A DNA stretch of 63,891 nucleotides, the filler included, from Mycoplasmatota bacterium (GTDB taxonomy: Bacteria > Bacillota_I > Bacilli_A > RF39 > UBA660): the NCBI GenBank assembly GCA_012727915.1. It is 5 parts of 5 records of this genome, joined end to end, with 100 filler letters (N's around TTAATTAATTAA, not from the genome) between each part and the next. Parts side by side here need not be neighbours in the genome. Positions count along the whole stretch, not along the records: positions 45,060 to 63,891 come from JAAYGD010000060.1; 4 more parts are not named here. One strand, given 5' to 3'. Made by a program: the position numbers. Of this stretch, positions 51,801-57,800 are shown in pieces (position 1 is the stretch's first letter; every line of letters begins with the position of its first letter).

Positions 51801-54800
51801 CCATTTCCCAAGCTCCAATGGTATTTGGCCATGATCTATCATCCATTTCGCTAGTAGTTGCTACCAGCGATGGAATTGAAAATGCCTCCATCTCCCTATA
51901 ATTTGGTAAGTGTTCCATTTGAAGTAATCCACCATTTAATACTATATCCGGTTTATCTTCACTTCTTTTTGATTTTAAATATTGTTCCAATAAATATGAA
52001 ACAGTATATGTTTTTCTAGTTCCATGATGTCTTACCAAAATTTTTGTATCATTTACTTTTAATATACCATTTAATTCACCCAAAAAATGCATATCATCTC
52101 TTATTCCCTCTAGTCTTTTACCTATAGGTCTTTCAAAGGCATTATTGTGTGTAGCATCTTTATCACCCGTAATAAAATAAGTTTTCATTCCTTCAAGGTG
52201 AGGGTACATTTTAATAAATCTTTCAATTTGAGAATAGGTATCTTTTAAAAATAAAGTATTATAATATTTACTTCTTTTTGTTTTACCATTACTAGGATAT
52301 AACCCTTCAGTCAAATCACCACTTATTATTATTGTTCTACATCCAGAGTTATATGCATTTTGTATTGCATTTTGATATATTGTTGGTTGCTCATAAATAG
52401 AACCTGTTCTTAAATCTGAAATCACTAGAACCTTAAATGGTTCATCTATAGGTGTCTTAATATGAATTTCATTTTGTTTTATATTAATATCTCTAATATA
52501 ATTTAAATATAATTCCCCACCTCTTTGACTAATAGTAAGTGGATATCCATCAGCTTTTATTTCTTCTAATGCTTTAGATATTTCAAATATAGATATTTCA
52601 AAGTTTTTTTCCAACTCTTTTAATTCTATTTCTCCTTGTTTAGAATTACTCCTGATAAAATTTAATAAGAGAACTTTATTCATCTCTAAATCAGTATATT
52701 TTCCCATTTTTTACCTCCTCCACAAAAAAATGTAATAGATGGCGAAAATCTATTACATTTAATATTTTAATTGTTTTTTCCTATTACAATCATCTCAACC
52801 TCCCTATTTTTTATGTTCAACCTAATATAATATAATTATACTTTAGTATAGTTTTTTTTGAAAGGTTTTTTATCAAAATTGATATAAATAATACACAACT
52901 AAACATTTGATTGTCCTTTTTTTACATAAATGTTTTTATTATTTTAATAAGTGTTAAAAATTGATTCTCCAACATTTGTGAATGTATGAATTGTATATCC
53001 ATTATTAGAGGTAATTGTTCCTCCCGTTGCTTTTTGATCACCTTTATATTTTATTATGATACCACTAACAATTTATATACATATTATATATAAATTTTAT
53101 AAATATTATTAAAATTTATCTTTATATTTCCAATTACTAAAAATTTATAAATAAAATCTATATTAGAAACCAATCCATTTATTTTTATATACTCTTTATT
53201 TGAATAATATATTAATTCTATATTATTACCCTTTTTTATTTCCTTTATTTTATTAGATAATTCTTCATATTCATCTTCAGATAAATTCTTTTTTAAATCT
53301 TTAATTTTTTCTTTTTCTTCCAATAAAGTTCTAAATCCTCTTAATGAATCAAATGGTGCGAACTGTTTAGCTCTATTAAAATTATTCTCCACTTTTATGA
53401 CCTCCTATCAATTTATTTCTAGTTTTAGAAGTAGCTCCTTCTTCTAAATTTATACCTCTTAATATTGCATTCTTTCCATGTTTAATCTTTATATTATTTA
53501 TAATCTTTTCTATTTTTTGTTCTTCTTCTATTTCAATTTGATTAGAAAACAAATCTAATTGTTCAAACTTTTTATTTCCAATATTTAAAAATGCAATTCC
53601 TATTTTTCTAATTAAGATTTCTTTATTTACAATTTTTTCATATAAATCTAGAAAATATTCTAGCATTATAGAATATACATTGGTAGTTTCTATCATCTTC
53701 AATGTACCTTTACTACTCTTTATTTTATCCTTTGAATATCCAATATATAGATATATCGAATCTGTAACTAAATCCCTTCTGACTAGTTCTAAACTTCCTA
53801 TATCAACCATTTCTTTTACTATCAATTTAGCTTTATTATAGTTATAATCTTCAAACAATATTTGACTAAATGATAATGAATTGGATTTTGGTTTATATTC
53901 TTTTATTTCCTTTATAGTGCATTTTTCTATACCATTAGAATGATCTATTAATGACTTTGCATTTATCCCAAATTCTTTATATAGTTTATATTCTTCACAA
54001 TTAGATATATCATACATATTATTTATACCCATATTATTTAATCTTTTTTGAATACCTCTTCCTATTTGCCAAAAATCACTTAAAGGTTCATGATACCATA
54101 ATTCTTTTTTATATAATTCTTCATTTAAAAATCCAACATTATCTTTTGTTCTTTTTGCAATTATATCGAGCGCAATTTTCGACAAATACATATTTGTTCC
54201 TATACCAGCACTTGCAGTTATACCAGTTTCTTTAAATATTGTATCAGTTATCATTTTACATAAATTTATATAATCATTTTTATATAAATTCAAATAATTA
54301 GTAACATCTAAAAAAGCTTCATCTATAGAGTAAACATGAACATCATCTTTATGGACATATTTTAAATATATAGAATACATCTTGGAAGAATATTCCATAT
54401 ATACTTTCATTCTTGGAGAAGCCACAATATAACTTATATTTTTAGGTATTTCGTATACTCTACATCTGTTTCTTACACCTAATTTCTTCATAGCGGGAGA
54501 TACTGCCAAACATATCGCACCATTTCCTCTAGAAGGATCTGCCACAACTAAATTTGCAATAAACGGATCTAATTTTCTTTCTACACATTCTACAGACGCA
54601 AAGAATGATTTTAAATCAATACAAAAATATATCTTCTCCATATTTACCCCTCAGTTATATCCAATATCATTTTATCGAACAATTGTTCGTTTGTCAATGA
54701 TAAAAAGTAGATATTTGCATATCTATTTTATAATTTGTTTTTATTAATAATTTTTATTAAGTCATACCATATTGTACTTATAACTGCAACAATAATAGTT

Positions 54801-57800
54801 AATAATAATTGATATATACTAAGTGGTGTTGTTCCCACAATTTTTTGAAAGAAAGGAACATATATAATAATAAATAATAATAAAACTATTCCTAATACAA
54901 CTCTTAAAATTACTTTATCTTTTAAAGTGGAAATAAAATTATTAATTGATAAATCTTTACTGCTATTTACAAATACAATAAATAGGTTTGAAAGAATTAA
55001 AGTGGATATTGAAAAAGTTAAAGCAAGTTCTTGAGAATATCCATTTTTTATCATATAAATATAACTTCCAATAAATGAAATAGATATAATTAGACCTTGA
55101 ATAATATATGTAATTATATTTTTATAATTTAGTAATTTTTCATTAATATTTCTTGGATTTTTTTTCATTATATCTTTATCTGCTTGACATCTTTCAAATA
55201 CAATTGAAGCTGTAGGATCGATAATTAATTCAAGTAACACTATATGAATAGGAAATAATAATATTGGTAAATTAAATAAAGGTATTATAACTGCTGCTAG
55301 TGCAATTGGTATATGAATTATTAATACATATCCAATAGCTTTTCTTATGTTTTCATAGACTCTTCTTCCATTTTTAATTGCAACTACTATTGTTTTAAAA
55401 TTATCATCCAAAAGTACTAATTTCGATGATTCTTTTGCAACTTCAGTACCTCTTTTTCCCATAGAAATTCCAACATCGGCTTTCTTTAAAGCCGTAGCAT
55501 CGTTAACTCCATCTCCGGTCATTGCAACTATCATATTGTTCTTTTGTAATGCATTTACTATTCTCATTTTATGATTAGGATATACTCTTGCAAAAATTGT
55601 TACTTTTTTTACAATTTCATCTAGCTCTTTATCATTCATTTGCTCTAATTCTTCACCAGTAATAATTTTATCACTATCTTTTAAACCAATTTCATTACAA
55701 ATTGCTTTTGCAGTTTCTCCGTTGTCTCCAGTTATCATTACAACTTTAATTCCAGCATCATAACAATTTTCTATGGCTTCTTTTACGCCATATCTTGGGG
55801 GATCTGATATTGCTAATAAACCCAAAAAGGATAATTTATAATCATATAAGTTTTTCTTTATTCTTTTAAAATTAGTAGATGCTACGGCAATTACTCTATA
55901 TCCTTTATTAGTAAAGTTCTTGTTAATTTCTTTAATCTTTTCTTTTTCGCCATCACTTAGTTCGCATAAAGAAATAATTTTTTCATAAGCACCTTTAGCA
56001 TACGCTATATAAGAATTATTATTTTTGTAAACATGAGCCATTATTTTTGATTCTGAACTAAAAGAATATTCATAAAAAGGATTATTATTTTTTAATTTTG
56101 AGGTCATTTTTTCTTTACAAAAAGAAATAATTGCTTGTTCCATAGGATCATAAGCTTCATTCTCACATGATAAAAAGCTAGCATTGACAAGTTTTTCAAA
56201 TGTATCATGATTATATGAATCTACAACAGTCATTTTGTTTTCTGTTATTGTTCCTGTTTTATCAACACATATTACTGAAATGGATCCTAAAGTTTCTATT
56301 ACACTTGTTTTACGTACTAAAGATTTTTGTTTTGATATTAAATATGAACCCATTGTTAAAAATACTGTTAATATTACTGGTAATTCTTCTGGTATGGTTG
56401 CCATAGCAATAGTAATACCCGCGATTATTGAATCAGCAATTCTATTAAATAATGAAGTTGAATTTTCAATGTTATTAATGAAAGAAATAACAAATACTAA
56501 AAACATAAATATAATACTAACAAATGCCCATATTTTAATTAATTTTCTTGTTTGTTTTTCTAATAATGTTTGTGGTTCTTGAATATTTTTTAAAGCATTT
56601 CCTATTTTTCCATGTTCAGTATTTAATCCTACTTGAGTAACAATTAAGACTGCTTCTCCTCCAGTAACAGTTGTTCCAGAATAACATTTATTTTTTTTAA
56701 AATACTCTTTTTCTTCATTTATATTTAATTTTATTTTTTTCCATACAATTGCTGATTCACCAGTTAAAGTTGACTCATTAACTCCAAAATCACGACATTC
56801 TAATATGTCTCCATCAGCATTTATTACATTGCCTTCTTGAAGAAATAATATATCACCCACTACCAGGTCTTCACTACTTATTTCAATAAGTTTACTATCT
56901 CTAATAACTTTGTTTTTTGAACTAGATAATTTTTTCAATTCATCTAAAGCTTTATCTGTTTTATATTCTTGATAAAAAGAAATTATCGCAATAAACATTA
57001 TAAAAACAAACATTATTATGCTATCAAAATATTCACCTAATAAAATATAAATAAAAGATAAACCTAATAGCAATAAAAACATAGGTTCTTTAAATATATT
57101 TATTAATTTAATAAATAAACTTTCTTTTTTTATGTCTCCTAAAACATTTAATCCATTTATTTTTTTTGAATTTTTCACTTCTTCAATTGATAAACCCAAA
57201 TAGTTCCCTTTAAAATTGCCAACTTTCATTGTATCCTCCAAATTGATTTTTTATTAATAATTATATCACTATTTATTTAATAAATAAAAAATTGCATTAA
57301 GCAATTTTTTTAATCTTCTTCTATTTGATTAGTTATTCCTTCTTCAGGTTCACTAATATTATTTTCTCCACCCTCAACTTCTTCTTCGGGATTTGTCTCT
57401 TCTTCCGGTTTTACATCTTCATTAATAATTTTCTTGTCTAAATCTAATGTATCTCCACTTTCAAGAGTGCTTAAATTTAAAGATATTAATTTAAATTGAT
57501 TAGATGCGTATAAATAATCATTTATATATAATCCTCTAACGCTTCCATAAAAATAATATTCCTCATCATAAGAGAATTTAATCTCTCCTATTTTTTCAAA
57601 ACCAACATTATCTATAAATCTATAAGCAACATAATCATTATTAATTGGAAATCCTATTATATTTTTATCTTTCGATACTAATATAGCTTTATGATTATAA
57701 GAAGATTCTGACCATGAATATTGATCTCCAATAACTAATTTATACTTTTCTTTTACATCTTCTTTATTTTGAATATCAAACATTGATATTTTCATGCCTG

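Follow-up and report, generated by a model that had tools for sequence, protein, structure and literature searches.

ATP synthase is regarded as almost universal, most of its known exceptions being intracellular or episymbiotic. Its loss is itself already known from phytoplasmas, UBA1242, and CPR. Candidatus Phytoplasma, a group of reduced relatives of Bacilli, has no F1Fo and obtains ATP from glycolysis, and the accessible text of PMC3743221 describes a membrane potential kept without this enzyme, with P-type pumps proposed as its source. UBA1242 (Christensenellales) and part of Rs-D84 are likewise uncultured gut bacteria with reduced genomes, and in UBA1242 F0F1 and the pyrophosphate pump are both missing (PMC12306168). 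Loss at the level of whole lineages, with the enzyme now and then regained by transfer, is described for CPR/DPANN (10.1101/2023.04.11.536006) and Moeniiplasma (PMC11535214). The statement in the first-pass annotation that even mycoplasmas have not given up ATP synthase is thus contradicted by phytoplasmas and Moeniiplasma. Nor is the loss in RF39 absent from print, as had been supposed: the available portion of the Wang 2020 supplement tabulates low values, uncommented, for gut lineage 1 (HG1, clustered with RF39), namely atpA 0.24, atpD 0.34, atpE 0.18, atpB 0.07, ntpA 0.01, and hppA 0 (PMC7301438). In that study, as far as its accessible text extends, genomes were included from 50% completeness, the positives were left unexamined, and Fig. 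3 includes atpA and atpE, with no mention of ATP, atpA, or atpE in the main text (PMC7301438). Literature searches on RF39/UBA660 ATPases and on F1-like and c-ring terms, covering few subscription papers, returned no text describing the RF39 loss or the module presented below, and three small supplements of PMC6784871 held no match on the topic.

The window analyzed here, a stretch of 63,891 nucleotides in all (filler included), belongs to a genome that the first-pass annotation places in RF39/UBA660 (G000; 872,930 b, 76 contigs, 93.8% complete). A PF00006 search of this genome gave nothing over the cut-off (best E 0.007), with 14/14 controls positive, and HMMs trained on sequences of the order itself (alpha, beta, gamma, epsilon, the protein in the a position, b, and c) found nothing better than E 0.08 in its six frames, which answers, for this family, the concern that a very divergent ATPase had been missed. 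Among the 112 ORFs predicted to have at least three TM helices, 109 were scanned with Pfam, and none matched F0 a/c, V-type I, PPase, OadB, RnfA/E, Na/H antiporter, or Trk; outside this batch were the window P-type ATPase, scanned separately, a 2086-aa ORF, and a 113-aa ORF. From the 41 two-TM ORFs on the contigs examined, the further matches were limited to MscL, SecG, and FtsH. Neither the alpha/beta (A/B) nucleotide-binding domain nor the membrane subunits a/I and c/K of an F/V/A-type ATP synthase were therefore found. Genes for a wall (MurJ, FtsW/RodA, PBP, Mur ligase) appeared in the same membrane-ORF scan, and the genome also encodes the ATP-yielding enzymes PGK, pyruvate kinase, and acetate kinase. 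The Rho RNA-binding domain occurred in 0/5 order genomes, compared with 9/14 controls. The first-pass picture of a walled lineage with substrate-level ATP enzymes and neither a rotary ion pump nor Rho therefore holds, but its proposed answers, the RnfCD pair of this genome and the window P-type ATPase for the lineage, find no support.

Across the order, PF00006 was absent in 267/301 genomes at least 90% complete and present in 34 (11%), a figure that replaces the earlier 3/41 and leaves the claim of widespread absence standing. All order genomes scored were species representatives, mostly fragmented assemblies; the control gene PGK was detected in 150/151 of them, and 209/219 small fragmented genomes of other Bacilli were positive for PF00006, a control set without G416 (one class-level genome, unscored). 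The 34 positives break down into six genomes of a single genus, g39, which alone carry subunit a, 27 genomes with divergent operons, and one likely contaminant, G147. The sole match in G147 lies on a 1,586-base contig, scores below 150 bits against both alpha and beta profiles, and presumably represents a V-type B subunit; it was set aside as probable contamination. Since most positives are not ion-coupled, the loss is more extensive than previously stated, with about 98% of sampled order genomes lacking an ion-coupled rotary enzyme. The absence is confirmed as real in the source genome and in most of the order, and the loss of F1Fo ATP synthase appears to be ancestral to the order.

Genus g39 carries a canonical F1Fo operon, atpBEFHAGDC, with the Glu of c and the Arg of a, as seen in the one operon read whole; subunit a occurs in 6/6 genomes, one with an internal stop. 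Its alpha subunit shares 75% identity with Clostridia-labelled proteins versus 60-67% with 20 Bacilli alphas, and nests in Clostridia with clade support of 100/100. Grouping with Bacilli was rejected by an AU test at p 2e-13, in which the group was chosen once a first tree had been inspected and contained only three Clostridia-labelled sequences. Because alpha nests in Clostridia, this ATP synthase was probably regained from them.

The remaining 27 genomes, from ten genera, possess a divergent F1/b/c operon accompanied by giant anchored proteins, and 11 of these operons, covering all 10 genera, were read. The c-like protein (c*) matches PF00137 over the cut-off and carries no Asp or Glu in helix 2, for which the available text of PMC12256841 describes the role of a carboxylate, in 11/11 order loci, 68/68 c ORFs called in 80 loci, and 116/118 homologues. 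PF00119 subunit a was found in 0/28 of the positives outside g39. A 5-TM protein of the module has no alignment column above 27% Arg and matches three subunit-a chains over 150-158 of 178 residues with Z 7.7-8.6, values typical of common helical bundles, to which shorter matches reach 10.4; profile comparison with subunit a gave a probability of 0.05, and Foldseek with the 5-TM model gave no match at E 0.001. This protein may be subunit a-like (a*). ESM Atlas yielded no usable match for the 240-aa protein of the module and, for the giant protein, only collagen/FN3 leads under 0.9. The beta subunit keeps the P-loop GGAGVGKT and the glutamate of GER.RE, and alpha its arginine finger, residues presumed here to be catalytic. 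Additionally, epsilon lacks the C-terminal helices, a delta gene is missing, b is long (about 250 aa), and beta forms its own clade, apart from Type 2/3 and from the one N-type beta tested. Lacking both the ion-binding carboxylate and the stator arginine, the module should direct ATP to mechanical work, which is probably what most retained copies do instead of moving ions, judging from their residues. The same ion-blind module occurs in the cultured isolate Kineothrix alysoides, so that its function is testable; no RNA runs were found listed for that operon.

Within the window, an intact 833-aa P-type ATPase is encoded at 54728..57229 on the minus strand, as are all the motifs that follow. It is P2-like, of an uncharacterised PEE[I/F/L]P subfamily, and has the DKTGT phosphorylation site (aa 323-327, 56249..56263), the TGES actuator motif (aa 156-159, 56753..56764), TGD, GDGVND, and about ten TM helices. 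TM4 reads PEELP (aa 280-284, 56378..56392) versus PEGLP in Ca2+ pumps, retaining the ion-site glutamate and gaining a second acid, while TM5 reads IHIPI (aa 638-642, 55304..55318), with His versus the Asn of Ca2+ pumps and no Glu three residues on. Because of these TM5 residues, on a position mapping onto SERCA that is assumed here, the second Ca2+ site is taken to be lost. TM6 bears ELIIDP (aa 667-672, 55214..55231), with two acids versus NLVTD of Ca2+ pumps, and its Glu presumably resembles that of H+/K+-ATPase. PEE[I/F/L]P at TM4 is shared by 120/120 homologues and the TM6 pattern by 118/120. The protein falls below every NCBIfam subfamily cut-off, including P3A H+, P2A/B Ca2+, P2C/D Na+/K+, and P3B Mg2+ (best score 510 against 798; P3A 397 against 615). 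The closest solved structures are Listeria LMCA1 and SPCA1, P2A Ca2+-ATPases (E 1e-124 to 1e-121), to which the window pump is also alike in having one ion site, and from which it differs in its TM4, TM5, and TM6 motifs and its sub-cut-off scores. That its nearest solved relatives are Ca2+ pumps is a counterpoint to the view that P2-type pumps supply the gradient. The charge carried by Ca2+ export is too small to energise a cell.

The upstream neighbor on the same strand encodes a secreted beta-propeller protein (57310..59238) with no link to the pump shown, and downstream lie a Y-family polymerase and a YolD-like gene (53084..54641, minus strand), unrelated to the pump and preceded by a sigma-70-like site at 54697-54669 with an 11/12 match, such sites occurring overall at chance level. 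Relatives of the pump with about 50% identity exist in unrelated bacteria such as Thermoanaerobacter. The description of a single P-type ATPase applies to the source genome, where this is the only such pump, but not to its two genus mates, which have three each. Close orthologues occur in 8/151 order genomes, 3 of these 8 also having an F1-like operon, a distribution that argues against this ATPase as the membrane energiser of the lineage.

Other pumps were sought across the order. H+/Na+-PPase, the Na+-decarboxylase OadB, and Mrp/Ech/Nuo, each found in 0/151 order genomes, were rejected as replacements for ATP synthase, and further alternative families were found in 0/5 genomes each; no single pump replaces the enzyme across the order. 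P2-type pumps are present in 135/151 genomes, with 16/151 lacking a match to the P2 query, and 11/22 of the other P2 loci examined show DL(V/I)(T/A)D in TM6, presumably a Na+/K+-pump pattern. P-type pumps are not the whole answer, because neither a P-type domain nor a pump of any other family tested is present in G074, G058, and G101 (6, 9, and 10 contigs; 93-94% complete). In the source genome, an ABC2_membrane_3 protein and an adjacent ATPase at C59:23909-26087, without a specific NCBIfam name, form a putative NatAB-like pair, the likeness to NatB being assumed. Heliorhodopsin, which is not known to pump ions, was set aside. An arginine deiminase route was rejected for the source genome, where the gene was not found; it is present in G006. 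Blanks from the motif regexes for metabolic enzymes were disregarded, since these patterns failed to pick up genes that the genomes are known to have.

The orphan RnfCD pair, previously put forward as a pump of the source genome, is rejected as a remnant. Inside a contig, rnfD is followed directly by hrcA; RnfA, E, G, and B were not found beside C and D; and RnfD has neither a fused G domain nor TPL, which is taken here to be the flavin-attachment motif and is kept in 22/25 loci. Within the order, RnfA/E occur in 19/151 genomes and RnfD-like genes in 63/151, with none found in 88/151, and an RnfC with two 4Fe-4S motifs adjoins RnfD in 5/5 remnant loci examined. The carriers cited as needing an ion gradient (DcuC, SDF, uracil permease, MFS, AbgT, and others) are indeed present, but such a need does not follow for each of them. 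The SDF carrier has NKV in place of NMD and Asn in place of D405, the motif and residue that define the Na+-coupled SLC1/SDF symporter in the available text of PMC12668577. NMD appears in 0/27 parsed SDF carriers from 30 loci (HKDG 14, HMEG 7, NMHG 4, HMCG 1, NKVG 1). The uracil permease does keep the residues aligned with Glu/His/Glu of UraA.

The account that best accommodates these observations, probable if only just, is that the ancestor of the order lost F1Fo ATP synthase, ATP then coming from substrate-level phosphorylation, and that no single pump took its place. Demand for a gradient would be low, since secondary carriers are few, some have lost their cation ligands, and neither a Na+/H+ antiporter nor Trk was found where tested. 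The small remaining gradient would most likely derive from ATP-driven P2-type pumps, helped in some lineages by the shrinking Rnf or by NatAB-like ABC exporters, all of them as candidate ion pumps; in the source genome, the window ATPase and the one NatAB-like pair would be the only candidates remaining. Rotary genes in 11% of genomes would be compatible with the loss because the enzyme of one genus was regained from Clostridia and the genes of ten genera belong to an ATPase-competent, ion-blind module, whose F1, c*, b*, and a*-like parts would spend ATP on mechanical work at the cell surface. A bolder version, tentative and on the doubtful side, holds that the order has dismantled chemiosmosis through loss at the root, decay of Rnf, and erosion of symporter cation sites, its F-type genes being an ion-blind F1-c-ring motor on giant surface proteins; some species would then be without a known primary pump and would therefore have almost no ion-motive force or an undescribed pump.

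It is unlikely that these cells do without any primary ion pump of consequence, either living on a weak potential or pH gradient set up by the export of fermentation acids, electrogenic exchange, or a Donnan potential, or drawing on a partner cell, with the carriers serving as exchangers or uniporters. The three near-contiguous genomes without any tested pump, the missing NMD motifs, the stepwise Rnf decay, and the arginine deiminase of G006 would suit this reading; however, the uracil permease retains its UraA-aligned residues, most genomes retain P2 pumps, the source genome lacks arginine deiminase, and the SDF motifs, compared within the order only, may be older subfamily traits. Energisation by an unrecognised primary pump, whether among membrane proteins without a family match or in the conserved RnfC-RnfD remnant, is quite improbable: about 30 of 109 multi-TM ORFs in the source genome have no Pfam match, and RnfD-like genes far outlast RnfA/E with an iron-sulfur RnfC alongside, yet RnfD in the source genome lacks the flavin motif, such genes were unfound in 88 genomes, and no candidate has been demonstrated to be common to the order. 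The narrow distribution of the PEELP-type ATPase, its relatives in unrelated bacteria, and its failure to reach any subfamily cut-off make it very unlikely to be a dedicated H+ or Na+ pump replacing ATP synthase lineage-wide, even as the sole P-type pump of the source genome, with a conserved single ion site, extra acids, and a TM6 Glu presumably like that of H+/K+-ATPase. That gaps in the assemblies, or subunits too divergent to be detected, explain the absence is highly improbable; the source genome, in 76 contigs, does lack two P-type genes of its genus mates, but PGK is nearly always recovered from the same genomes, fragmented genomes of other Bacilli are overwhelmingly positive, and profiles of the order's own divergent subunits match nothing in the source genome.

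Under the favored account of ancestral loss with a small, mostly P2-driven gradient, a common walled gut order joins the exceptions to a near-universal enzyme. Gene-count surveys understate the loss, because most annotations of "ATP synthase" correspond to the ion-blind module. Ranging from full Rnf through an Rnf remnant and P-type pumps only to none at all, the order provides a natural series for studying the minimal membrane energisation of a dividing walled cell, and the loss may help explain its resistance to culture.

Compared with known systems, the module resembles the Mycoplasma Type 2/3 F1-like X0 (PMC3369863) and the Omnitrophota "symbiotic" F-ATPase (PMC10066038), for which the available texts combine F1 with surface or membrane partners and propose a non-bioenergetic job. 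Type 2/3, as described in the accessible part of PMC3369863, has no a, b, or c homologues, whereas the module has c*, b*, probably a*, other partners, and its own beta clade, and a gene for the 12-TM protein 1, which together with proteins 2 and 5 characterises Type 2/3, was found in none of the divergent operons read. With N-ATPase it shares the missing delta, the long b, and a gene order that is a permutation of beta-epsilon-a-c-b-alpha-gamma; in the available text of PMC4154653, however, the N-ATPase c binds Na+ and the enzyme sits beside a normal synthase, whereas c* has no carboxylate and no atpR was seen in the module. UBA1242/Rs-D84 belongs to another class and has incomplete glycolysis, and its description contains no replacement-pump analysis and only mentions RF39 (PMC12306168). 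Phytoplasmas, according to the accessible text of PMC3743221, are wall-less intracellular pathogens, whereas the present order is gut-dwelling, carries genes for a wall, and includes genomes without any P-type pump. CPR/DPANN and Moeniiplasma are described in the available texts as host-dependent episymbionts or symbionts, and the loss reported there for CPR, 10/33 (10.1101/2023.04.11.536006), compares with about 98% of genomes without an ion-coupled enzyme in the order studied here.

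The genome under study (872,930 bases in 76 contigs, 93.8% complete) encodes no rotary ATPase. PF00006, the alpha/beta nucleotide-binding domain of F-, V- and A-type enzymes, gave no match over the cut-off there (best E 0.007) and was detected in 14 of 14 controls, while profiles built from relatives' own ATPase subunits reached only E 0.08 against its six frames, confirming the absence reported in the first-pass annotation. By Pfam, covering 109 of 112 ORFs with at least three TM helices and 41 two-TM ORFs, no F0, V0, PPase, OadB, RnfA/E, Na+/H+ antiporter or Trk was found. The missing Rho noted earlier also holds, its RNA-binding domain being absent in five of five genomes; because Rho loss is common in Bacilli, this adds little.

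The ion-coupled enzyme is nearly absent from the whole RF39 order. Profile search of 301 genomes, each at least 90% complete, found PF00006 in 34, spread over 12 of 128 genera, where the samples are species representatives and related genomes are not independent in the counts. The positives comprise six genomes of genus g39 with subunit a, a single genome (G147), and 27 from ten genera lacking subunit a by Pfam; 11 of these 27 operons, representing all ten genera, were read. An ion-coupled rotary ATPase is missing from 295 of the 301, for 16 of them as judged from genus and missing subunit a, which upholds and extends the earlier claim of a large group without ATP synthase. Incompleteness cannot explain the pattern, because the PGK control was present in 150 of 151 of the order's genomes and PF00006 occurred in 209 of 219 genomes of other Bacilli families versus 3 of 30 of this family in a class-wide sample (one further genome unscored).

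Among the positives, subunit a is confined to the six g39 genomes, and the g39 operon read, atpBEFHAGDC, retains c-Glu and a-Arg. Its alpha subunit shares 75% identity with two Clostridia-labelled proteins versus 60-67% with 20 Bacilli alphas. It forms a clade with Clostridia-labelled proteins (support 100/100) in a tree that held three such rows only, five rows and the divergent set being left out; the AU test rejects a grouping with Bacilli (p 2e-13), the tested group having been named after inspection of a first tree. From these comparisons the operon is read as a putative re-acquisition. The sole PF00006 match of G147 sits on a 1,586-base contig (L013, contig C15), presumably resembles a V-type B subunit, and is probably a binning contaminant.

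No universal known pump replaces the rotary ATPase. H+/Na+-PPase, OadB and the Mrp/Ech/Nuo antiporter subunit were each found in 0 of 151 genomes, and CPA antiporters, NhaC and Trk each in 0 of 5. Matches to the NatB-like ABC permease of this genome occur in 60 of 151, and close ones in 11. The window P-type ATPase (54728-57229, minus strand; 833 aa), proposed in the first-pass annotation as a candidate, is indeed an intact gene. Its subfamily is widespread (PEE[I/F/L]P in 120/120 homologues, a TM5 His, ELxIDP in 118/120); the window protein itself reaches no cut-off among NCBIfam P-type subfamilies, and its nearest solved structures are one-site Ca2+ pumps. Na+/K+ pumps have a second Asp in TM6, and such an Asp occurs in 11 of 22 other P2 loci read. 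Any P-type match is found in 135 of 151 genomes. G074, G058 and G101 (6, 9 and 10 contigs) lack a P-type domain, with all other pump searches negative too, and three of five other P2-, Rnf- and NatB-negative genomes (G006, G032, G034 and G063 examined, G070 left out) have only a heavy-metal-sized or weak match.

The other pump suggested earlier, RnfCD, is ruled out as a working Rnf in this genome, because hrcA directly adjoins rnfD inside a contig, there is no G domain, and RnfD lacks the TPL motif that 22 of the best 25 loci retain. The two-gene remnant, here (L083:10062-12378, contig C59) and in five others read (L310-L314) that consist of C and D only, has open frames and two 4Fe-4S motifs. 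RnfD occurs in 63 of 151 genomes and RnfA/E in 19; three fuller operons (L307-L309), from genomes without ATP synthase, contain C, a D-G fusion, E, A and a B shortened to ~90 aa. The remnant persists in many genera without RnfA/E/G and possibly has a new function.

The premise that the carriers need an ion gradient survives in part. The SDF carrier (L051:3882-5036) reads NKV where the NMD motif is expected and has Asn at the D405 position; the NMD motif and D405 are cation ligands (described in PMC12668577). SDF genes occur in 47 of 151 genomes, and NMD is kept in none of 27 carriers parsed from 30 loci of the order; HKDG, HMEG, NMHG, HMCG or NKVG replaces NMDG (L051:3882-5036; L277-L306). In these variants a lysine may take the place of the cation. 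In the uracil permease, by contrast, the Glu, His and Glu that align with UraA are retained, which probably leaves some proton coupling in place. For ATP supply, the genome encodes PGK, pyruvate kinase and acetate kinase, as first annotated; PFOR was not found in this genome or two genus mates.

Taken as a whole, the favoured reading, at somewhat above even chances, is that the rotary ATPase would have been lost at the root of the order and ATP synthase regained once, that ATP would come from substrate-level phosphorylation, and that a small ion gradient would be sustained by P2-type pumps, assisted here and there by Rnf and ABC exporters. Cells with no meaningful ion pump at all are unlikely, roughly a one-in-five prospect, and an unrecognised pump energising the membrane is rather less probable still. 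The window ATPase as replacement for ATP synthase is quite improbable, since orthologues (at least 47% identity) occur in only 8 of 151 genomes. An artefact is scarcely credible given the PGK and class-wide counts. The observation in the first-pass annotation is upheld and widened, and its interpretation finds partial support; RnfCD as a pump in this genome and the window ATPase as a general solution for the lineage are not supported.

Other genes were also observed. The window encodes a 742-aa protein, apparently of two calcineurin-like metallophosphoesterase halves (50479-52707, minus strand), adjoining dnaG and rpoD, and a PLD-nuclease/SF2 helicase fusion (60085-62868, minus strand) beside a MutT-like gene; the fusion resembles an enzyme of restriction or phage defence. 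Elsewhere, contig C16 of this gut-associated order's member carries a heliorhodopsin gene (L054:99-2635) neighboured by DUF1295 and DUF2177, contig C19 carries conjugative element genes (L057-L058: VirD4-like, TrbL, M23 peptidase), and the strongly reduced genome retains an ice-binding-like domain protein (L054:5579-6403) and a GGDEF protein (L082:3508-5547). The c-di-AMP cyclase CdaA (L074:14651-15466) is encoded, yet the membrane ORFs scanned yielded no recognisable Trk/Ktr, Kup or Kdp system for potassium.

A divergent F1-like module (L038-L048, L177-L256; for example L246:1691-20235 in the isolate Kineothrix alysoides) is conserved as an operon encoding, in gene order, a giant protein, a ~470-aa anchored protein with FN3-like domains at its C-terminal end, c-like and b-like (~250 aa) subunits, alpha, gamma, beta, short epsilon without C-terminal helices, a 5-TM protein, an anchored protein of 240 aa and frequently another giant; the positions of gamma and of the 240-aa gene vary. 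The giants span 1700-2400 aa with a single N-terminal TM. The c-like subunit exceeds the PF00137 cut-off, and its helix 2 lacks Asp/Glu in 11/11 order loci read, in 116 of the 118 loop-motif homologues (from 120 listed out of 1416), and in 68/68 called c ORFs from 80 loci (in 12 no c ORF passed the filter). Beta retains the P-loop and presumably catalytic glutamate, and alpha what is taken to be the arginine finger. Three subunit-a chains align with the 5-TM model (pLDDT 89) at Z 7.7-8.6, covering 150-158 of its 178 residues; no other listed alignment is as long, but shorter helical-bundle matches score higher. Foldseek gave no significant match, the profile comparison was negative, and no column exceeds 27% Arg. 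Of 307 module-like stretches across species-representative genomes, the 80 kept, which may overlap the order genomes analysed by handle, span Bacilli, Erysipelotrichaceae and Lachnospiraceae. Module-subunit profiles found none in the genome under study. One alpha (L041:4888-9138) bears a C-terminal extension of ~970 aa, totalling 1416 aa. In another Bacilli family, L264 (G321, contig C41) is a second F-type locus with 676-aa alpha and 517-aa beta, its beta grouping with canonical Bacilli copies. In F-type ATPases ions are carried by the carboxylate of c and the arginine of a (as outlined in PMC12256841), so the module should not translocate ions, and an ATP-driven mechanical role would fit.

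Loss of ATP synthase is already a known kind of event: phytoplasmas lack F1Fo and keep a membrane potential, with P-type pumps proposed (noted in PMC3743221), neither F0F1 nor PPase occurs in the gut bacteria of UBA1242 (PMC12306168), Moeniiplasma lacks ATP synthase (noted in PMC11535214), and so do 10 of 33 CPR and many DPANN (per 10.1101/2023.04.11.536006). The values tabulated for this lineage in supplement 2 of PMC7301438 are atpA 0.24, atpD 0.34, atpE 0.18, atpB 0.07, ntpA 0.01 and hppA 0, the atpB column being unreliable (0 for Erysipelotrichales); supplement 3 assigns atpA and atpE to Fig. 3, and a term search of the main text returned neither ATP, atpA nor atpE. No statement on ATPases came up in term searches of PMC10868615 or PMC6784871. 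The literature searched yielded no report of loss at this extent in a walled gut order, of the regain, of the ion-blind nature of most positives or of pump-less genomes. Non-bioenergetic F1-like ATPases are described for Mycoplasma (in PMC3369863) and Omnitrophota (in PMC10066038); related sources include PMC3322544, PMC4154653 (N-ATPase) and PMC11932165. In a quick tree the module beta forms its own clade (100), to which neither the extra copies of Mycoplasma, the single N-type beta included nor the canonical betas belong. As set out in PMC3369863, the Mycoplasma Type 2/3 ATPases have no a, b or c homologues, whereas the divergent module has c-like and b-like subunits.
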